Of a stretch of DNA of 31,658 bases, positions 13,703-22,509 are shown piece by piece (within the stretch, counting starts at the first letter, position 1; the number at the start of each line of letters is the position of its first letter). Location of the stretch: the IMG/VR virus record IMGVR_UViG_3300033406_000031, positions 1 to 31,658 of that record; one strand, 5' to 3'. The notes beneath the pieces are model-generated. The model searched no databases, was not told the origin of the DNA, and was given only the letters and a program-made list of their open reading frames with translations. This stretch comes from a virus. Taxonomy: Duplodnaviria > Caudoviricetes. The translations under genes and the position numbers were made by a program.

Positions 13703-14992
13703 TTAGCCTCCTTTCTGCGCGGCTTTAAGCTTTTCGGCTTCTCGCCGATAGTGATCCAGTAATCCGGTATTATACCGCCTGTATTGCTCAATACTGTACC
13801 GAAGCGCCGCCATAGCATCATCCATAAATTCAACTGGTTTATCCAGATAAAGACCAGTTTTACTATCCTTTTGCCATTTCCATTGTTGGATTTCTTTAAT
13901 CGTATTAAAGCAACGCGGGTGAATGTGTATCCTGTGCTGCTTTAGGTAGTCAATTTGAGCCTCTACGCTTCCCTGCTCCTTCTTAACCCCTTGGGCGCGA
14001 TAACCCGCTTTGGCCCACATCTTGATCCGGTCAGGCTCTGCGCAATCACAGTACATGATTAACTTTTTATTCAGGTTGTGAGCTGCCGCTATCTGGATCA
14101 ATTCCGTCGTGTCTTTCTCGTATTCATAGATTTCACCACAAACAAAAAGCTCACTGTCTTTAAAACCGACAGTGAGTATTGCATTTGCATGATTAAAACC
14201 AAAGTCCTGGCTCAATACCATAGAATCAAAACGACTCGGATCCACGTCAAATTCATGCACATGGTAATTATGCAGAATTAGACCGCCCGTTTCACCCCAT
14301 TCACCTAATCCATATACTTTATATCCTTCCGGATCTCGTTCTTTACGCATCATCATGCGCCGGTGATAGGCTTCATCAATAAACCGGTTATCCAGGTAGG
14401 TTGACTGATGGGTGAAGATGTCCGGATGCTCAATATCAAAGTATTTGGCTTTCAGCCAATGCATAGCGGAAACAGGGTTAAAGGTGAAAGTCATCTGATA
14501 GTAGAGATTCGGATTATCTAACTGTCCACGTAGACGATCATCCAGAATATCCACATCGGCCTCTGTCAGTTCAGTGGCTTCTTCAATCCATATCCAGGTT
14601 AACTTACCCCGGGCAAAGTTGATTGATTTTACTTTTTCCCGTTGGCGGTCATCGTTGACACCACGGAATATGACTTCGTTGCCTGTGATTAGGCAGGTCA
14701 GCCTGAGAGGGCTAAGGGTAATCTTCCAGTATAATTCCGAACGTTCCCCACATAGCCGGTTTATAGCCGCTGTTAGTTCGGCATAGGTTGAATCTTTATT
14801 AGACCCTTCCACCTTACGTACTACCAGAAGATTAGCCCCTTTGTATTTCGGGTCCATCAATTTAACAATATAATCCTGGGCGATGTTGACGCTTTTACCA
14901 CTACCGGCAGAACCTTTCATAACACGGTACCGTAAGCGGCATTCATTTACAGGCCTGAAAATAGAATTAAATTGAGCCATAACCTCAGACAT
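13703..14992 (-). CDS. terL: Terminase large subunit, PBSX family
   Basis: KGSAGSGKS, WIEEATE, TFNP, DFGF, DDAMAALRY. Confidence 0.96.
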   Translation of the reverse strand: MSEVMAQFNSIFRPVNECRLRYRVMKGSAGSGKSVNIAQDYIVKLMDPKYKGANLLVVRKVEGSNKDSTYAELTAAINRLCGERSELYWKITLSPLRLTCLITGNEVIFRGVNDDRQREKVKSINFARGKLTWIWIEEATELTEADVDILDDRLRGQLDNPNLYYQMTFTFNPVSAMHWLKAKYFDIEHPDIFTHQSTYLDNRFIDEAYHRRMMMRKERDPEGYKVYGLGEWGETGGLILHNYHVHEFDVDPSRFDSMVLSQDFGFNHANAILTVGFKDSELFVCGEIYEYEKDTTELIQIAAAHNLNKKLIMYCDCAEPDRIKMWAKAGYRAQGVKKEQGSVEAQIDYLKQHRIHIHPRCFNTIKEIQQWKWQKDSKTGLYLDKPVEFMDDAMAALRYSIEQYRRYNTGLLDHYRREAEKLKAAQKGG

Positions 14993-15761
14993 TGTTATCA
15001 CCGTAATCAATTTTAATGTTTAATGTAGGGGTGTCGTTTCCGTCCCCTTTCAGCTTCGTGATTTCGGCCTTCATTTTATCGATTTCCAGCTTTTTCTTTT
15101 CTCCAGCTAAATCCTCATACCGGGCAATCAGCCCCTCTAGCGTTTTCATGGCTCCACTCTGAGCCTTTAAGAACGCGGCATGCTTATCCCAGGCAAACTG
15201 CAATTCCCATTCCTTTTCGGTGCCGTTGTCCATATCTTTATGACGCTTAAGCATCTTGGTGGTGTCTTCCTGGTTTTCTACATACATTAACCGCTGCGCC
15301 CTGGCAATGGCCGTGTACTGAATGACAATGTTTTCCCACAGCATTTCCAGCGGGCTCTTAATATTGATACTCTCAACAATCGCCCTTATTTCTTCATCGT
15401 CTGGAAATATGCGTGAAAAAAAACCATGCTTTTCGGCATTCTTATTGCCTGGAAGTGCATAGCCGCCCTTATTACCTACGGCGTTTTTATTACCTTTAGG
15501 AGCCCCATGCCCCTTAGCATTTTGATTACCGGGTTTGGCTCCACACTTTTTGGAGTACTCCGTATTTTTCGGAGTACTCCGTTCATTTTTTTGGAGTACT
15601 CCGTTCCTCCGATCAAGCCAGTTATCTTTACATTTCCATCCTGACACTGTTTTTTCGGACAATGATAGCATTTCAGCAATCTTTCGATTGCTAATTTTGC
15701 CCTCTTGTTCAAGGTAAATCTCCAACGCCTTATCCCTATTTGGATCTCGATTACGCCCCAT
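14985..15761 (-). CDS. terS: Terminase small subunit (YqaS-like)
   Basis: N-terminal HTH (TVSGWKCKDNW), GAPKGNKNA repeats, NAEKHGFFS, LQFAWDK. Confidence 0.92.
   Translation of the reverse strand: MGRNRDPNRDKALEIYLEQEGKISNRKIAEMLSLSEKTVSGWKCKDNWLDRRNGVLQKNERSTPKNTEYSKKCGAKPGNQNAKGHGAPKGNKNAVGNKGGYALPGNKNAEKHGFFSRIFPDDEEIRAIVESINIKSPLEMLWENIVIQYTAIARAQRLMYVENQEDTTKMLKRHKDMDNGTEKEWELQFAWDKHAAFLKAQSGAMKTLEGLIARYEDLAGEKKKLEIDKMKAEITKLKGDGNDTPTLNIKIDYGDNNV
15552..15602. repeat. Three palindromic GGAGTACTCC boxes inside terS
   Basis: Copies at 15552, 15571 and 15593, separated by T-rich spacers. Confidence 0.85.
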
Positions 15762-15782
15762 GCTACATATCACCCACCTCCG

Positions 15783-16004
15783 TTATGGATCTTCACGTTG
15801 AAGCTTTAAATCAAGCTCAATAAGCTTTTTTAGATCGTCTACATTTTTAATCTCAATAAGCCCCTTCTGGAAATCGCTTATCCATTTTGCAATTCCCGCC
15901 CGGACAATTTTACGATACTTAGCCTTTTCCGCTGCAATATCCTCAGTAAACTGGGTTTCACCCTGTAATTTATTATCTTTCCTTACTATTGCCAGCACCC
16001 CCAT
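15783..16004 (-). CDS. Conserved-looking small phage protein upstream of terS
   Basis: KYRKIVRAGIAKWISDFQKG.I.IK.VDDLKKLIELDL; start uncertain (ATG 16004 or ATA 15989). Confidence 0.7.
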   Translation of the reverse strand: MGVLAIVRKDNKLQGETQFTEDIAAEKAKYRKIVRAGIAKWISDFQKGLIEIKNVDDLKKLIELDLKLQREDP

Positions 16005-16024
16005 TTATATAATAAAATGGTTGC

Positions 16025-16131
16025 GAGGTAGTAGCCCTTTGTAATCTGTGGCCACAGTGGAATCTACTATCTCCTGCCGGGGGTGCCCGGAACTGGGGTG
16101 GATGTTGACGCATCCGCCCCTCTATTTTTTT
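16025..16131 (+). ncRNA. Candidate structured small RNA
   Basis: Three stems with G-U pairs only on +, ends in a U7 tract; TTGCCA-N18-TAAAAT upstream. Confidence 0.6.
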
Positions 16132-16139
16132 ATAAAGGC

Positions 16140-16634
16140 TTATGCCCTTTTATACTCATAGGTTGCATCTTCGTGGAGTTGAGGCACTCGACGTATTACG
16201 CCTCTTGAAAGCAGCTGAAGCACCCGCTTAAGGGTTCTCGTCGCTGCCGGTATTACCGCCCGAGAGTAAAAGGCCCTTGGCTTTTCACCTTCACGAATTG
16301 CAAGTACTTCCTGTTCACAAATATCACCTGTATCTAGCCCCTCATCTGCCCAGAACCATGTCACTCCTGAATATTTTTCGCCTAAAGCAAAAGCCCACCT
16401 TATTGCATCAGGTCCTCTATGCCTCGGAAGCAGTGATGGATGAAATATTAAAGTTCCCAATTTCGGAAGCCGTATTTCCCGGCTACTCAGTTTTTGCGTA
16501 AGTAATGGGGCGATTGCCAAATCCGCTTTACAGGTTTCGTCTACAATTATAGCCCCAAATTCTTCAACCGTTTTCTTACACTCTTGAATAACCGGTAAAC
16601 TACGGTCGCCGTAAATATATATTTTTAGGCTCAT
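16140..16634 (-). CDS. Stand-alone formyltransferase (Formyl_trans_N)
   Basis: LIFHPSLLPRHRGPDAIRWA..GVTWFWADEGLDTGDI. Confidence 0.9.
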   Translation of the reverse strand: MSLKIYIYGDRSLPVIQECKKTVEEFGAIIVDETCKADLAIAPLLTQKLSSREIRLPKLGTLIFHPSLLPRHRGPDAIRWAFALGEKYSGVTWFWADEGLDTGDICEQEVLAIREGEKPRAFYSRAVIPAATRTLKRVLQLLSRGVIRRVPQLHEDATYEYKRA

Positions 16635-17758
16635 TATCTTTCCACCTCACCAATGTATTTAAATCCCTGTACGGCTCGAAAATGCCCTCCATAGCCGCAG
16701 GAAACATTACCTTTGGACGTTCGATTCATGCTTTGCCTTGATCTCGCTTTGTTGCCTCCAAACAGTATCGCGCTAACCTGCACCCATTTTTTCGATTTTC
16801 GAAGGGCTCCACAAAGCTGTGGATGGGAGGTATGAAAGTAAGTCGGATATTTATTGCCTTTCCTTCCGTAGCCCTCAAGGTGCAACTGACATACTGTTTC
16901 TAAAAACTTTAAACCACAGCCGGCACCTTGCCACTCCGGCATAGTGACCAATCTTGTTGCCCGGTATCCTCCAATTTCAAAGCGAGGACTTACAGCCAAG
17001 TGACAAACCAGCTCGCCGTCAGCAACGCCTACAAAGTATTCCGCTGCTATTGGCATCGGCAAGTCTAAATAATAATGCGGCTTAAAATATTTCCAGTAAC
17101 GCGAGTCTGTCTTGATAATCTCCAATTCGAATTTTGGTCGTCGAAGACGCCCCCTAGTAAAAGTTTTTTCTTTCGTATCGATAACCCAGTCAGGTTCAAC
17201 CCATTCCAATATGTCATAGTGAGGAGTAAGCAACACGCATTGATTCTTTCCGCCATTCTTTCGGCGCCAGGCTTTTTGAAATGCCTGAGATCCTATTTTT
17301 GCAATCTGCCTATCTATAACTGATGTAAATTCATCGATAACGACTTTTTCAGGTTTTTCACATATTAGCCGAGCCAATCCCGCCCTAAATTGTTCTCCGT
17401 TTGACAGAACATGAAAAGGACGTAACCAGGAAGGAACACTGCCAAGACCTACATTCGCCAACGCGCCAGTTACGCTGTCAAAGTCTCCTTCAGAAGCTAT
17501 TGCATCAATAATCGGCTTATCGCCTGGCCAATTTTTTGTATAATCATGAATCAGGTTTTCGCCGAAAATCACTTTTCCAATCGAGGTTTTACCACTTCCG
17601 CTTGGACCAACAACAACCCCAATTTGCCATTCAAAATCAAGTTCCGCGTCTATGTCTAGATCGAAATTGCAACCGCTCTCGGCATTAAAAAGGCTTTTTA
17701 CCCGCGCGGCCCGATAACTGTCAAAATCTGATACTCTATTTCTAACTTGAATAATCAC
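16634..17758 (-). CDS. ABC-type ATPase fused to GNAT acyltransferase
   Basis: Walker A GPSGSGKT, signature LSNGEQFR, Walker B VVIDE, His loop; GNAT motif A TRLVTMPEWQGAGCG; GTGA overlap with ParB gene. Confidence 0.88.
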   Translation of the reverse strand: MIIQVRNRVSDFDSYRAARVKSLFNAESGCNFDLDIDAELDFEWQIGVVVGPSGSGKTSIGKVIFGENLIHDYTKNWPGDKPIIDAIASEGDFDSVTGALANVGLGSVPSWLRPFHVLSNGEQFRAGLARLICEKPEKVVIDEFTSVIDRQIAKIGSQAFQKAWRRKNGGKNQCVLLTPHYDILEWVEPDWVIDTKEKTFTRGRLRRPKFELEIIKTDSRYWKYFKPHYYLDLPMPIAAEYFVGVADGELVCHLAVSPRFEIGGYRATRLVTMPEWQGAGCGLKFLETVCQLHLEGYGRKGNKYPTYFHTSHPQLCGALRKSKKWVQVSAILFGGNKARSRQSMNRTSKGNVSCGYGGHFRAVQGFKYIGEVER

Positions 17759-18348
17759 ACGCACACCACCTTGCATTCAAAGCCTTTCTCTTTAAGTTCG
17801 TTATATACTTTTTCCTGGTGTTGTTCATCTGTGCAAATTACTATTACTCCATACTGTTCATGGTAGGAAAACTGTGATCCCGTTTTATCTTCCTCAGGTA
17901 GTATTGGCTGTCCCAGAATCTTTGTTATTTCGGCACTATCAAATCCCGTTAGCTCCATATCAAATTCGCTAACGTCTAGTTCCTGTAATATCTCCTCTAA
18001 AGCAGTGGTATCCAAGACCGACAATTCCGCAATCTTGTTATCTGCAATCAGATCAGCCCATTCTGAGGCTTCATCTTCATAATCCTGCCGATCCACCGGC
18101 ACTTGATTAACACCAAGCCGCTGAGCCGCCATAAGCCGCCCATGACCACGAACGATAAAACCAGAGCGAGTGCTTACCGTAATCGGTGCGCGCCAGCCCT
18201 GGTTTTGAATTATCTTCGCTAATAGCTCTATTTGTTTATCGCTGTGTTGATTGGGGTTTCGTGGATTCGGTACCAGCTGTGTAATATCGGCCAGTTCATC
18301 AAATGCACAATAGACGGGAATTCCATCTGCAAGTATTTCCTTTGTCAT
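17755..18348 (-). CDS. ParB/Srx N-terminal domain protein
   Basis: PNPRNPNQH..GWRAPITV..IVRGHGRLMAA..IADNK; no methyltransferase domain attached. Confidence 0.9.
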   Translation of the reverse strand: MTKEILADGIPVYCAFDELADITQLVPNPRNPNQHSDKQIELLAKIIQNQGWRAPITVSTRSGFIVRGHGRLMAAQRLGVNQVPVDRQDYEDEASEWADLIADNKIAELSVLDTTALEEILQELDVSEFDMELTGFDSAEITKILGQPILPEEDKTGSQFSYHEQYGVIVICTDEQHQEKVYNELKEKGFECKVVCV

Positions 18349-18554
18349 TTTAGCACCCCTGTTACTTTACTGGACTTGTACTTACCACCGCGCCGGTGGC
18401 AGTTCGAATTAAACGGCTGCTCAAGCATCGCTTTGCCGATCCGAGGACGGTACTCGGAGCAATCGCCGCCTTTATTCAGCTTAATCCTTTTAGCTATGCA
18501 GATTTCGATTCCGTGACGTTCACAGTCTTTCCGTTCACACTCAACGGTGGGCAT
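18345..18554 (-). CDS. Small Cys-rich protein
   Basis: VECERKDC..IC.A..I....C; RBS GGGAGG; ATGA overlap with ParB gene. Confidence 0.7.
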   Translation of the reverse strand: MPTVECERKDCERHGIEICIAKRIKLNKGGDCSEYRPRIGKAMLEQPFNSNCHRRGGKYKSSKVTGVLK

Positions 18555-18582
18555 GGTATCGCCTCCCCCTATTTTTAGGCAC

Positions 18583-18605
18583 GAAAAAAGAGCCCGAAGG
18601 CTCTA
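18583..18605 (-). terminator. Intrinsic terminator of moron pair
   Basis: AGAGCC-TTC-GGGCTCTTTTTT on - strand. Confidence 0.7.
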
Positions 18606-18619
18606 TCTTAATTTAAATT

Positions 18620-18919
18620 TCATTTATCTTTTTTTATAAATTTTGAAATGCTATTCATTATTATCTCTCTTACTATTTTGGCTATCTGAACAATACACAA
18701 ACCGCTAACAACAATACTATTAATGTTAAAAGGATGGTAAGCACCGTATAACACTACGATCAAGAATGCGAGTAAACACCAATTCAAGACATCCACAAAA
18801 TGCGTCGATTCTTCTTTGTATTTTATCTTAAAATACGCTTCAGCCGCTATTATCGCTATATAGACAGCACCAAATAATCCATTCATATAATATTTAAACA
18901 TATAAAAAATTTCTTCCAT
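18620..18919 (-). CDS. Moron membrane protein (~3 TM)
   Basis: Hydrophobic, AT-rich. Confidence 0.7.
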   Translation of the reverse strand: MEEIFYMFKYYMNGLFGAVYIAIIAAEAYFKIKYKEESTHFVDVLNWCLLAFLIVVLYGAYHPFNINSIVVSGLCIVQIAKIVREIIMNSISKFIKKDK

Positions 18920-18961
18920 TATTCAACCTCACAAAAGAAGATTATTTCCAATGCTATAAGT

Positions 18962-19237
18962 CTAGTCTATTATCCCCAAGGCTTTTAGATTGTCAATTCC
19001 TGCCTGAGTAATAGTCGCCTTATCTAAAGAGGTGTCATAATACACATTCCCATCAAAATCTATGTTTGTTATTAATCCGTGTATTCTGAGGTAATCAACA
19101 ACTTCGGCAAAGTCCTTTAACTCCCAATTCAATTTACTTGCTCTTAAATTCGTCATATCTGAACCAGAATTATATTGTTCATCGTATATCTTTTTCAAAA
19201 GAAACTGACTTCGTTCATCTAACATCCATTTATCCAT
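18962..19237 (-). CDS. Small winged-helix protein (YjcQ-like)
   Basis: LLKKIY..DYLRIHGLI..ATITQAGID.L; RBS AAGGAGG; sigma-H promoter at 19295-19268. Confidence 0.7.
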   Translation of the reverse strand: MDKWMLDERSQFLLKKIYDEQYNSGSDMTNLRASKLNWELKDFAEVVDYLRIHGLITNIDFDGNVYYDTSLDKATITQAGIDNLKALGIID

Positions 19238-19322
19238 TTATGGCCTCCTTTGCCTATATTTTACATCATTCGGCAAAAAGGAATATAATTCCTGCAAAAT
19301 AAAATAGCCACTGCACATGGAT

Positions 19323-19610
19323 CTAGTTAGAAAAATCCATCTTATTATCCGAAAGGACTTGGTGTAGAACTTCTCCAAGCACACATAATTTGTGATGTTC
19401 TAACCTCAATTCAAGTCGATAATTTATCGCCTCTAGAACTTCATGTAATAGCACTTCATTCTTTCCACTTTGAGGAAGGTCTCCCGCTATATTAATCTCA
19501 TTTAGGTAATTATTACATTGACCAGTATTACCGCCGGACTGTGCAATATATTTATCTAAAATATTAATTTTATATTCATGTCCAAGTATTTTCACTGATT
19601 TCAAAGGCAT
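19323..19610 (-). CDS. Small zincin-like protein with degenerate HExxH (HEVLE)
   Basis: VKILGHEY..GQC....I.I....Q...VLLHEVLEAI; RBS GAGGTG. Confidence 0.65.
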   Translation of the reverse strand: MPLKSVKILGHEYKINILDKYIAQSGGNTGQCNNYLNEINIAGDLPQSGKNEVLLHEVLEAINYRLELRLEHHKLCVLGEVLHQVLSDNKMDFSN

Positions 19611-19684
19611 ACGTTCTATCACCTCTATATGGTATAATATTCCTGTACAAACCACTATATAATGTACAGAGAGGAGAAATATTG

Positions 19685-19849
19685 ATGGCCAAGAACACTG
19701 GTGAAGGATTCAGACGTGGAGCCGTTGATAACCGCAGCCAAACTCATGCCCCAAATGGCAATGCAATTAAACGAGACACCACTACTGGGCGATTCATTGA
19801 CCAAAAAACAACTCCAGGCGACTTTAAAGGCGTTCGCCACGAAAAGTAA
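19685..19849 (+). CDS. Small basic moron protein (54 aa, missed by ORF track)
   Basis: MAKNTGEGFRRGAVDNRSQTHAPNGNAIKRDTTTGRFIDQKTTPGDFKGVRHEK; RBS GAGGAG; TATAAT upstream; terminator downstream. Confidence 0.8.
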   Translation: MAKNTGEGFRRGAVDNRSQTHAPNGNAIKRDTTTGRFIDQKTTPGDFKGVRHEK

Positions 19850-19866
19850 ATATTTCTCTACTAGCT

Positions 19867-19902
19867 GAGCCGCACCGAGTCACCGGAGCGGCTTTTGCTT
19901 TT
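19867..19902 (+). terminator. Intrinsic terminator
   Basis: GAGCCGCACCG..CGGAGCGGCTTTTGCTTTT. Confidence 0.7.
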
Positions 19903-19954
19903 GTTAACTTGCAGATTATAGTTGTTTTAACGTCCGCCTCCTTGTTTTTGGGCA

Positions 19955-19983
19955 ATATAAAAGCGCCCATTTGGACGCTTCTT
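19955..19983 (-). terminator. Terminator of the DUF6338-peptide operon
   Basis: AAGCGTCC-AAAT-GGGCGCTTTTATAT right after the peptide 3 stop. Confidence 0.7.
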
Positions 19984-20124
19984 TCAGGTCTTCGTATTTT
20001 TGCCAGTTTTAGTCTCACCAGTACCGCCTCTGGGAGGTTTAATATTTCCACTTGACCCTTCAGGGCTATATCCGTCATGCGCTACTCCGCGTTTACCTTC
20101 TCCCTTACTTTTGGGTTTCATCAT
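19984..20124 (-). CDS. GYSP/PPxGG peptide 3 (46 aa)
   Basis: MMKPKSKGEGKRGVAHDGYSPEGSSGNIKPPRGGTGETKTGKNTKT; RBS AGGAGG. Confidence 0.8.
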   Translation of the reverse strand: MMKPKSKGEGKRGVAHDGYSPEGSSGNIKPPRGGTGETKTGKNTKT

Positions 20125-20260
20125 TTGAATTATTTCCTCCTGCTGATTCTCCAGTTCCACCTCTTGGTGGTTTTATCTTTCCAGAAGATGCTTCAGGACT
20201 ATAGCCACCGTGTATAATTCTTGGTTTGTCTTGTTTTTCTTTATTACTTTTTTGTTCCAT
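20105..20260 (-). CDS. GYSP/PPxGG peptide 2 (51 aa)
   Basis: MEQKSNKEKQDKPRIIHGGYSPEASSGKIKPPRGGTGESAGGNNSNDETQK; RBS GGGAG. Confidence 0.8.
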   Translation of the reverse strand: MEQKSNKEKQDKPRIIHGGYSPEASSGKIKPPRGGTGESAGGNNSNDETQK

Positions 20261-20393
20261 TACTTAAACTACTCCCGCCTGAAGACTCACCAGTTCCGCC
20301 TTTCGGTGGTTTTATAGTCGTTACCGATTGCGGGGAATATCCTTTTTTCTCTACAGGGCAATAGCCGTCAGTCAACACTTTCTGTTTGCTCAT
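20244..20393 (-). CDS. GYSP/PPxGG peptide 1 (49 aa)
   Basis: MSKQKVLTDGYCPVEKKGYSPQSVTTIKPPKGGTGESSGGSSLSNGTKK; RBS GAGGGGG. Confidence 0.8.
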   Translation of the reverse strand: MSKQKVLTDGYCPVEKKGYSPQSVTTIKPPKGGTGESSGGSSLSNGTKK

Positions 20394-20997
20394 GTTCGCC
20401 CCCCTCATAATTAGTATCAAAGAACTCTAAGTAATCAAAGTTTTCCTTACTTATCCACAAACCATATGTGCCTTCAACTTTATTCAGAAATGCTCCATTG
20501 TTATCCACTCGCCATACCTCTTCTAGATATAAATCCTCGGTATTAGGAAACGAAGAAGTATAAGATTTTTCGCTGAGATATAACCCACCAACCAATTTAC
20601 CATTTTTCAAGTGAATAAGAACAAAACAAGCCTTCCTTGACGAGAAAAAATGATCCCATGCTTTTGGTGTAGGAAGAATAACTTTATTTCTAAACCGCTC
20701 GCTTTCAATAACTTTTTTTATAATTATTGGCCATAAAATCGGAAGCACTAACAGTAAGACATAGATCAAAAATATAAAGGCGCCTGGATAATAGGGCTGT
20801 ATTTTCTTTATATACGCTAAAACCCACCATACAACTGCAAAATTGATACAGCCATAGCTCATAACTTCTAAGAAATAATCGACGGGCTTACGTATTTCTC
20901 CTGGAACTAATAGCTGCCATACTTTCCAAGATATAAAACCAGGAACAAAACAAAAAATAAATAAAGTCATCTTATCAATATTAAAAATATCTACCAT
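20368..20997 (-). CDS. DUF6338-like membrane protein
   Basis: FVPGFIS in TM1, 3 TM, P.AWDHFF...V.IHLKNGK.VGG.Y...S.TSSFP..EDLYLEEVW. Confidence 0.8.
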   Translation of the reverse strand: MVDIFNIDKMTLFIFCFVPGFISWKVWQLLVPGEIRKPVDYFLEVMSYGCINFAVVWWVLAYIKKIQPYYPGAFIFLIYVLLLVLPILWPIIIKKVIESERFRNKVILPTPKAWDHFFSSRKACFVLIHLKNGKLVGGLYLSEKSYTSSFPNTEDLYLEEVWRVDNNGAFLNKVEGTYGLWISKENFDYLEFFDTNYEGGEHEQTESVD

Positions 20998-21171
20998 GTC
21001 CCAGCCCTCAATACCAACTAAAGCGTTATTTCCTTATGCCTGTTTTCAACATAAGGAAATAAACTCCTGCAAAATTCATAAAAAATAGACCGCCCTTCAA
21101 GGCGTCCATGTTATGTAAACTCATTAAGTTGCAGACCAATTAATTTAAGTTTAGCATATTTGTCAAAAAAG

Positions 21172-21498
21172 TCAACCGTTAAAAGAGGCGCACTTTCCAG
21201 CCAAACCCACATTAATTTGGGCTAACGATTTCTTTTTCATGTCAGCCTTTCGGCTTCGCCCCTTGCTTTTACTGCCGCCACTACCTAGCAAAGCCTCTCC
21301 CGCTGGTAATGCTTCTTTGGCTGGCAAGTTAGCCTTGTATCTTTCACACATCAAGCTTGCAATTTCATCATTTTCCGCATTACTTGTTTCCGGCCAAACC
21401 TCAGTACCACATTCGGGGCATTTATAAAAATCTTGCTTTGAACTGTAAGTCATAACAACCCTGCACTCCTGACAAAACCAAGGTTTTCTAATCATCAT
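21172..21498 (-). CDS. Zinc-ribbon protein (possible late regulator)
   Basis: CQEC..CPECG; last gene of early operon. Confidence 0.65.
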   Translation of the reverse strand: MMIRKPWFCQECRVVMTYSSKQDFYKCPECGTEVWPETSNAENDEIASLMCERYKANLPAKEALPAGEALLGSGGSKSKGRSRKADMKKKSLAQINVGLAGKCASFNG

Positions 21499-21575
21499 AA
21501 CCCCTCCCAAAATAAATATCATTCAAAACACCAATAGGGCGACCTGATCGGCTGCCCTTTATCTGTAATTGCTGA

Positions 21576-21971
21576 TCATCGCCGCCCTACCCATGCTTGC
21601 AGTTCATCATCCCATTCCGCATTATATTGCGCTGGCAATTGTACCGCCATATTTAGCAAATACCTGATAACCGCTTTACATGCTACAAATTTACTTGTTG
21701 TTTTACTGCCTTGTGGCTTAACCTTTAACCCATTTCGCGCCTTCCTGAGAAGAATGATATTGCCTTTTTTGTTGATCAGTAACTCAACTTCTTCATTGTT
21801 CTTAAAGTGATTTCCGACAACTGACGAAATTGTAACCTTGTCTTTAGTTACTCTTATGTATGATCCCTGACTCAAACGGGAGTTAGTGGCATCAAACTTT
21901 ATAAAATCATTAAGATTTAATTTTACTTTGCAGGCATTGAAACTCTCTTCTTGTTTTTTCTCATAATGCAT
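21576..21971 (-). CDS. Hypothetical basic protein
   Basis: ORF with RBS GGAG. Confidence 0.65.
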   Translation of the reverse strand: MHYEKKQEESFNACKVKLNLNDFIKFDATNSRLSQGSYIRVTKDKVTISSVVGNHFKNNEEVELLINKKGNIILLRKARNGLKVKPQGSKTTSKFVACKAVIRYLLNMAVQLPAQYNAEWDDELQAWVGRR

Positions 21972-21983
21972 AATTTCACTCTC

Positions 21984-22085
21984 CTATATAATCAGTATTG
22001 CTACCAGTACCCCGGCGCTAATAGTTACCACCAACCCCGGTGGAGTGCAGAGCAAGAAATAAAATGTGTTAGTCAGTTTTTGTAT
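21984..22085 (-). CDS. Possible 33-aa membrane peptide with ATA start
   Basis: AGGAGG-N9-ATA; IQKLTNTFYFLLCTPPGLVVTISAGVLVAILII; fills the gap. Confidence 0.4.
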   Translation of the reverse strand: MQKLTNTFYFLLCTPPGLVVTISAGVLVAILII

Positions 22086-22509
22086 TGCGGGTCGCCTCCT
22101 TTGCTTTGGCTAGGGCTTCATCAATCAAGCTTTGTATTTCTATTGACCATCCAATAATGGCTTCAAAAGATTTATCATCATACATGCCTTTATTATCTAT
22201 AGGTATTGGTGTCTTATCTAGGTGATCATTGATCTGTTCTAACGCACTAACCAAATCAGCAACCTTTGACTCCGCCTTATCTGCTCTGATACCTTGACAT
22301 GTAGCATCAATATCTTTTTTCTCTAGGCGATATAGTTCTTCGTCTAGCACCTTGAATTCTTGTTCTAATTTTTTATATTTGGCTTTTTCTGCCTGTAACT
22401 GCATCCAGTATTCATATGCCTGTCGTATGGCAAATTTAAAATGATTGTCCGACATCTGTAGTTCATCTTTAAGCTGTTTAATCGTCTTCCATTGTGTCAG
22501 AAACAGCAC
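22069..22509 (-). CDS. Coiled-coil hypothetical protein
   Basis: RBS GGGGTGGGG; early operon. Confidence 0.7.
   Translation of the reverse strand: MLFLTQWKTIKQLKDELQMSDNHFKFAIRQAYEYWMQLQAEKAKYKKLEQEFKVLDEELYRLEKKDIDATCQGIRADKAESKVADLVSALEQINDHLDKTPIPIDNKGMYDDKSFEAIIGWSIEIQSLIDEALAKAKEATRNTKTD

Follow-up and report, generated by a model that had tools for sequence, protein, structure and literature searches.

A widespread phage cassette built on an ABC ATPase-GNAT fusion, a candidate system for acylating DNA bases

Introduction

ABC ATPases coupled with GNAT enzymes were predicted by Iyer et al. (NAR 2013) to carry out acyl modification of a DNA base, and the summary of that work in PMC7824862 names Tenacibaculum phage pT24 as a carrier. 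As outlined in PMC13219725, Mom of phage Mu uses a charged tRNA and TmcA acetylates N4 of a tRNA cytosine with acetyl-coenzyme A (acetyl-CoA). In the account given by PMC6802093, 10-formyltetrahydrofolate dehydrogenase (FDH) hands a formyl group to the thiol of phosphopantetheine, and for HypX a transfer to CoA is proposed, though not directly shown. Here we analyse a related locus in the IMG/VR virus record IMGVR_UViG_3300033406_000031, taken over its whole 31.6-kb length (31,658 nucleotides, hereafter the window; about 40% complete by CheckV), where a ParB-N protein with a small C-terminal domain, an ABC ATPase-GNAT fusion (ABC-GNAT) and a short formyltransferase are encoded side by side. 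A sequence-only reading of the window had proposed that these genes, with a Cys-rich neighbour, install an acyl- or formyl-type base modification as anti-restriction, and had suspected that such neighbourhoods might already have been predicted computationally. The Iyer prediction, as cited in PMC7824862, bears out that suspicion for the ABC-GNAT. The window protein likewise couples an ABC ATPase to a GNAT domain and is homologous to the named carrier: tblastn matched it to the DNA of pT24, whose carrier protein has the accession QAX98348.1, at 36% identity and E 3e-39 with 77% of the query aligned.

Results

The cassette consists of three overlapping genes and is widespread. In the window it lies on the minus strand at the head of the late operon, and its parts are as follows.

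17755-18348, minus strand: ParB-N protein with small C-terminal domain, 197 amino acids, first gene of the cassette (PF02195 E 1e-5; phrog_620/498)
about 17899-18306, minus strand: ParB-N part of that protein, with a GHGR motif at residue 68
17758-17880, minus strand: its 40-residue beta-alpha-beta domain (phrog_28816, E 6e-12)
16634-17776, minus strand: ABC ATPase-GNAT fusion, 380 amino acids from the ATG (ABC_tran PF00005 E 3e-7; phrog_11143 E 1e-146)
16140-16634, minus strand: short formyltransferase, 164 amino acids (Formyl_trans_N PF00551 E 5e-20)

The true start of the ABC-GNAT is probably the GTG at 17758, giving 374 residues (16634-17758), since this codon overlaps with the stop of the ParB gene and relatives begin at the equivalent position; residue numbers used here count from the ATG at 17776. 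The domain assignments of the sequence-only reading (ParB-N, ABC ATPase, GNAT and formyltransferase) held in Pfam searches, the GNAT half being weak by Pfam (E 0.015) and clear in an AlphaFold model built on 44 sequences (pLDDT 88). In this model, residues 1-201 align to ABC ATPases (Z 14.1) and residues 208-369 to GNATs (Z 15.2, root-mean-square deviation 2.7, 137 residues aligned). The ABC motifs are complete, comprising Walker A (57-64, with Lys63), LSNGE (124-128), Walker B (145-149, with Glu149), the D-loop and His186. The GNAT half is basic (28 K/R versus 13 D/E) and carries HYYL at 234-237, Arg275 and a Q-G-x-G-x-G CoA loop at 283-288. The loop is conserved across relatives, which argues for an acyl-CoA, over a charged tRNA, as the probable donor. 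An ABC transporter was considered and rejected: as had been remarked from the sequence, no permease family occurs among the 28 window open reading frames (ORFs) scanned in this record of about 40% completeness, and no permease adjoins the gene in annotated relatives. Annotations of P335, pT24 and TR-TP1 (survey loci L086, L087 and L137) split the ABC and GNAT halves into separate genes, and loci L327 and L396 contain an additional stand-alone GNAT copy.

The ABC-GNAT is abundant, with 5892 relatives among the 8000 candidates scored, and 71 annotated phage records. We surveyed the neighbourhoods of 297 loci, 290 of which gave an ABC-GNAT match; 284 of these were near full length and fell into 194 clusters at 90% identity. 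The best 80 matches were retained per scan, and the sample is skewed to relatives of the window protein. Upstream of the ABC-GNAT, 163 of the 186 untruncated clusters encode the 40-residue domain, either fused to ParB-N (75), alone (87) or split (1); a further 5 have ParB-N with no small domain detected and 18 have neither. This domain, fused or stand-alone, is the partner that consistently precedes the ABC-GNAT, unlike ParB-N, which is present in only 81 of the 186. ParB-N, which the sequence-only reading had counted among the core components, was consequently dropped from the core, as 87 clusters carry the small domain alone. On the other side, a formyltransferase follows the ABC-GNAT in 116 of the 194 clusters. 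The same downstream slot holds a CoA-transferase with PanD in 8 clusters, a CoA-transferase alone in 3, a gene of 70 amino acids in 14 and nothing recognised in 44, and is truncated in 9. Inspected by eye, the 44 mostly run directly into terminase-like genes or unrelated DNA.

We next consider what the two kinds of gene in this donor slot might supply. The best solved relative of the window formyltransferase is the FDH hydrolase domain (E 2e-26, versus 3e-12 for the next family), and a long-type relative matches that domain over its whole length (E 2e-31 versus 3e-16). In the alignment, Ile63, His65, Ser67 and Asp101 of the window enzyme correspond to Ile104, His106, Ser108 and Asp142 of FDH, i.e. 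the enzyme has the His-Ser-Asp triad and the non-Asn residue two positions before HxSLLP (the -2 site) that characterise the FDH-hydrolase/HypX type. PMC4388273 describes the Asn that FMT, ArnA and GART have at the position of FDH Ile104 as crucial to these enzymes. Of 116 relatives, 115 are readable at the -2 site and none of them has Asn; they have Gly (89), Ile (16), Val (5), Ala (4) or Ser (1) there; the His is kept in 115 and the Asp in 114, and a conserved extra His marks the long-type enzymes (94 of 116). Membership of the amine N-formyltransferases (FMT, GART/PurN, ArnA) was rejected on the Ile63 of the window enzyme and the 0/115 count for Asn. Since the active site is of the FDH-hydrolase type, without the Asn of the amine formyltransferases, we infer that the formyl acceptor is a thiol, most simply that of CoA, which the neighbouring GNAT would bind. 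The window enzyme is thus likely to be a formyl-CoA maker.

The alternative occupant of the slot is exemplified by Rhodococcus phage Jace, in which gp87-gp88 (L088:5137-6248) encode PanD (PF02261, E 2e-33) and a 227-residue family III CoA-transferase (PF02515, E 2e-8). A PanD gene and a minimal CoA-transferase gene are also found directly behind the ParB/ABC-GNAT cassette in loci L305-L419. Formyltransferase and CoA-transferase never occur together (0 of 194 ABC-GNAT clusters). For a reciprocal search, an alignment of 10 CoA-transferases, seeded from ABC-GNAT loci with no ABC-GNAT required of the matches, was run against two collections. It yielded 113 new loci, namely 70 strong matches preceded by 700 bp or more of sequence, 20 strong matches on short contigs, 22 weak matches and 1 unscored. 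The 70 strong loci show an ABC-GNAT within 1.5 kb upstream in 67, PanD in 58 and a formyltransferase in none; clustered at 90% identity, the strong loci include an ABC-GNAT in 40 of 43 clusters and PanD in 34 of 43. By comparison, none of the 16 weak, ordinary family III matches with enough upstream DNA has an ABC-GNAT. A Gly-Asp motif stands at what we take to be the catalytic position of family III enzymes in 60 of 62 long CoA-transferase matches. PMC13042692 describes an established, engineered route to beta-alanyl-CoA that combines PanD with a beta-alanine CoA-transferase, and the gene pair suggests that this slot may supply beta-alanyl-CoA, hence a different mark. In locus L098 (4001-7261; also in L097 and L099-L103), the PanD and CoA-transferase genes are flanked by two ABC-GNAT copies; L098 was tallied by its second copy as 'other', the first having PanD and the CoA-transferase.

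The donor genes follow the phylogeny of the ABC-GNAT. In a FastTree tree of 172 sequences, with clusters whose ORFs fall under 300 amino acids left out, all 96 formyltransferase carriers lie in one group (clade I; node support 0.68, enclosing branch 1.0) and all 11 CoA-transferase carriers lie outside it. Near the acyl site, the formyltransferase group has His259, His315 and His365, and the CoA-transferase group has Phe259 and Asn314-Val-Val; such clade-specific pocket residues would fit different donors. The 14 clusters with the 70-residue gene form a gut-phage subclade (L061:7152-7370 and 13 related clusters) in which this conserved gene stands in place of the formyltransferase and ParB-N is absent. 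The gene has no Pfam or PADLOC match, and was therefore not accepted as a recognisable replacement enzyme in these clade I loci.

Genomic context points to DNA as the target. The Porphyromonas phages 008a and 014a have tail genes that are 86% identical over 3.1 kb and share their final 93 bases; between these common flanks, one phage carries the small domain, ABC-GNAT and formyltransferase, and the other a true Mom (PF25680, E 6e-56). In phiE255 and Komp_PAO1_1, the cassette follows the tail-fibre genes, at the position of com-mom in Mu. ParB-N is also found with DNA methyltransferases and, in phage Dropshot, with Mom, and the portion of PMC13229309 concerned with phage T-dioxygenases describes ParB-N as activating, and being needed by, these enzymes. 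Taken together, acylation of DNA bases as anti-restriction appears to be the best-supported role. Two side observations concern these phages. In phage 008a, the leader that separates the small-domain gene from the last tail gene contains a long inverted repeat (L083:4640-4760), a possible regulatory hairpin. In Microbacterium phage Dropshot (L300:1969-3228), an annotated tRNA-Gly adjoins the ParB-N and Mom-family genes, and the phage may carry its own donor tRNA, since published summaries tie Mom to glycyl-tRNA.

The ABC-GNAT itself was rejected as a Mom family member, and the profile comparison with Mom that the sequence-only reading had suggested showed no kinship. None of 41 GNAT-domain members matched PF25680 at E<=1, the full-length relative LE4 gave E 0.059, under the cut-off, and hhalign against Mu Mom, with a single sequence as its template, returned a probability of 0.1%. 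Among the 50 structural matches listed for the two-domain model, Mom (8BV8) did not occur.

The 40-residue domain has near-invariant Cys172, Glu175 and Gln178. Gln is kept in 167 of 168 copies and Cys in 152, the other 16 having Val, Leu or Thr in its place. Its ESM Atlas matches are unnamed clusters. As no conserved Gln was seen between Walker A and the signature motif in the aligned ABC-GNATs, while the small domain has its Gln in 167 of 168, our guess is that this Gln may be supplied in trans as the Q-loop of the ATPase.

We finally examined the surroundings of the cassette, which include three neighbouring genes of the late operon.

18345-18554, minus strand: Cys-rich gene, 69 amino acids, first gene of the late operon, neighbour outside the cassette
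15783-16004, minus strand: phrog_1476 gene, 73 amino acids, between the cassette and terS, outside the cassette
14985-15773, minus strand: terminase small subunit, terS (NF040601, E 3e-74), context

The window encodes a serine recombinase, a repressor, RecT/YqaJ, terminase, portal and tape-measure genes among its 28 family-scanned ORFs, indicating a temperate phage. From the Cys-rich gene to the formyltransferase, the four ORFs share the minus strand and overlap at ATGA, GTGA and TAATG, with a GG-rich ribosome site 5' of each, and the translational coupling described in the sequence-only reading is therefore real. The four-gene unit is not: the ParB-N/small-domain, ABC-GNAT and formyltransferase genes belong together, and the Cys-rich gene continues straight into HNH or terminase/terS genes in all 4 of its related loci, none of which has the cassette. 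The three-gene cassette thus appears to have been inserted behind it. The Cys-rich peptide has no family match, and was rejected both as a cassette part and as a Com-like regulator. The position 'just upstream of terS' is right as to the operon, but a 135-bp gap and the phrog_1476 gene, which is present in 1 of 83 related loci, intervene. A coupling to packaging was also proposed and was rejected as a requirement, as related cassettes are found among replication genes or, in Mu-like genomes, at the right end.

Several further features of the window were noted. A terminator-like hairpin from a consensus scan (18589-18604, minus strand) closes the moron genes 35 bases before the Cys-rich gene, so that the cassette may need antitermination or a very close promoter. 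On the plus strand between the cassette and phrog_1476, positions 15989-16128 hold a promoter-like site (15989-16018) and a strong terminator-like hairpin (16095-16120) opposing the late operon, which might specify an antisense small RNA roughly 100 nucleotides long; it has no Rfam match, and the minus strand of this gap has a folding z of -2.85. No known RNA family was found in 14500-22500 at E<=1. Behind the DUF6338 gene, three short ORFs (19984-20420, minus strand) each contain a similar Gly/Pro-rich peptide unit. In a defence-system search, the only matches were to mad3, through the ABC signature, and to methyltransferase models, through ParB.

Discussion

From the anatomy, motifs, co-occurrence, exclusivity and Mom exchange observed here, we infer each chemical step of a working mechanism, to which we give somewhat less than even credence: a late, ATP-assisted transfer of formyl from formyl-CoA onto the phage's own DNA bases, which would block host nucleases. 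The formyltransferase, judging by its active-site type, would move the formyl of 10-formyltetrahydrofolate (10-formyl-THF) to a thiol, with CoA as the likeliest acceptor. The GNAT, with its full CoA-binding motif A, would take the acyl-CoA and acylate an exocyclic amine, either N6 of adenine or N4 of cytosine. As this amine is poorly nucleophilic, the ABC ATPase, which has intact motifs and no membrane partner, may clamp onto or open the duplex to present it, by analogy with TmcA. The 40-residue domain would serve as an activating subunit and ParB-N as an optional loading aid. In the other clade, the CoA-transferase and PanD in the donor slot would give beta-alanyl-CoA. A broader version, which we regard as doubtful, is a programmable acylase, in which an ATP-driven GNAT chassis receives a plug-in acyl-CoA maker that sets an N-formyl (window clade) or N-beta-alanyl (Jace clade) base, with the small domain giving the Q-loop Gln in trans. 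The sequence-only proposal of an acyl or formyl base modification as anti-restriction has gained the prediction in print for ABC-GNAT, the Mom swap in sister phages and a formyl-CoA mechanism, all at the level of context.

Several points weigh against formyl transfer to DNA. The correlation of donor, clade and residue is confounded by descent. The subclade of 14 clusters is nested among the formyltransferase carriers and has lost both the formyltransferase and ParB-N with its GNAT pocket residues unchanged; a PF00551 gene was found in 0 of its 5 near-complete genomes (positive control 3/3). Together with 15 further clade I clusters without a nearby formyltransferase, this suggests that the formyltransferase is dispensable or that the donor is host-supplied, and 44 of the 194 clusters have no donor gene. 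The window enzyme is without about 45 N-terminal residues common to its long-type relatives and FDH, and hydrolysis could be all that an enzyme with no Asn carries out. N-formyl bases may themselves be unstable. The best fold matches of the GNAT half are generic small-molecule and protein N-acetyltransferases, and the evidence for DNA as the substrate is all contextual.

The losses are what would be expected if the ABC-GNAT uses host acyl-CoA, acetyl by default, on phage DNA, with the formyltransferase either acting afterwards on the modified base or merely hydrolysing 10-formyl-THF. Donor-less cassettes are common (the 44 plus the 14), the formyltransferase was lost without a pocket change, and the extra His of long-type enzymes (94/116) could replace the Asn. 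However, the short type in the window resembles FDH in having Ile where the Asn would be and in lacking the extra His, and the CoA-transferase in the same slot elsewhere indicates supply of a donor, not tailoring of a product, which makes this alternative unlikely. Acylation of a protein, on Lys or the N-terminus of host RNA polymerase or of a ribosomal, defence or virion protein, seems to us less probable again. The structural neighbours include the protein acetyltransferases RimI (Z 14.5) and Naa/Ard1 (Z about 13), and phage GNATs that acetylate RNA polymerase appear in the survey of PMC7824862; yet these Z-scores are tied with those of many unrelated GNATs, the Mom exchange is one-for-one at the same slot, and the ParB-N partner is common to DNA-modifying enzymes. 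There is little likelihood, in our view, of a tRNA or other RNA, free nucleotide or signalling molecule as target, whether TmcA-like or as anti-defence detoxification: TmcA does acetylate tRNA cytosine N4 with acetyl-CoA (as outlined in PMC13219725) and motif A gives weak matches to NAT10 (E 0.013), but the NAT10 match spans the CoA loop only and ranks with unrelated GNATs, and the Mom exchange favours DNA. Most improbable is that the acyl group rides on the conserved Cys of the 40-residue domain as a mini carrier replacing FDH's acyl carrier instead of on free CoA, for although this Cys is present in 152 of 168 domains, the domain nearly always adjoins the ABC-GNAT and the FDH acceptor is a protein-bound thiol (as presented in PMC6802093), 16 of 168 have Val, Leu or Thr there, the GNAT retains its CoA pyrophosphate loop and CoA-transferases act on CoA.

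The core of the cassette is not new, since ABC-GNAT acylation of DNA bases was already predicted in print by Iyer et al. This analysis adds the donor-slot pattern, the assignment of the formyltransferase to the FDH type, the 40-residue domain as constant partner and the Mom swap in sister phages. ABC-GNAT is very common, yet no product is known, and the donor-slot pattern leads to two exact mass predictions checkable in cultured phages, +28 Da for formyl and +71 Da for beta-alanyl. Of the cultured carriers, Gordonia phage Axumite and Pseudomonas phage Komp_PAO1_1 are of the formyltransferase type and Rhodococcus phage Jace is of the CoA-transferase type, while Arthrobacter phage EastWest and Leptospira phage LE4 have no donor gene. 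N-formyl and N-beta-alanyl base modifications were not found in the literature searched on phage DNA. No report was found of an ABC ATPase, GNAT and formyltransferase together, with Iyer et al. 2013 and the ABC classification paper outside the comparison; nothing relevant was found on a phage aspartate decarboxylase with a CoA-transferase, and Iyer 2013 may already name partner genes. If the formyl-transfer mechanism is true, it would bring new DNA bases, a stand-alone enzyme that makes formyl-CoA and ATP-dependent acylation of double-stranded DNA, which would be useful to shield DNA from nucleases or to label it.

Compared with the system of Iyer et al., the two-domain protein is the same, and the summary in PMC7824862 names no formyltransferase, CoA-transferase, PanD, small domain or chemistry. 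The gene pair of Jace and its relatives suggests the same two activities as the PanD plus Act route to beta-alanyl-CoA, whereas the phage CoA-transferase has about 227 residues and a predicted substrate, and the pair sits in relatives, not in the window. With the FDH hydrolase and the HypX N-terminal domain, the window formyltransferase has in common the Ile for Asn, the His-Ser-Asp triad and a Tyr near the C-terminus; it differs in being stand-alone, with no acyl carrier or dehydrogenase domain, and in its 164 residues with an N-terminal deletion. TmcA/NAT10, which makes N4-acetylcytidine in RNA, is likewise an ATPase fused to a CoA-type GNAT and acylates a base amine, but acts on RNA. The TmcA ATPase is helicase-like and uses ATP, whereas that of the cassette is of the ABC type. 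Finally, Mom of phage Mu and the ABC-GNAT share the GNAT fold and a late or right-end slot, and are exchangeable at one locus. By eye, their HY pair and beta-4 Arg are similarly placed (His58-Tyr59 and Arg111 in Mom; 235-236 and Arg275 here). Mom is a single enzyme without an ATPase and takes a charged-tRNA donor, whereas the ABC-GNAT keeps its CoA loop.

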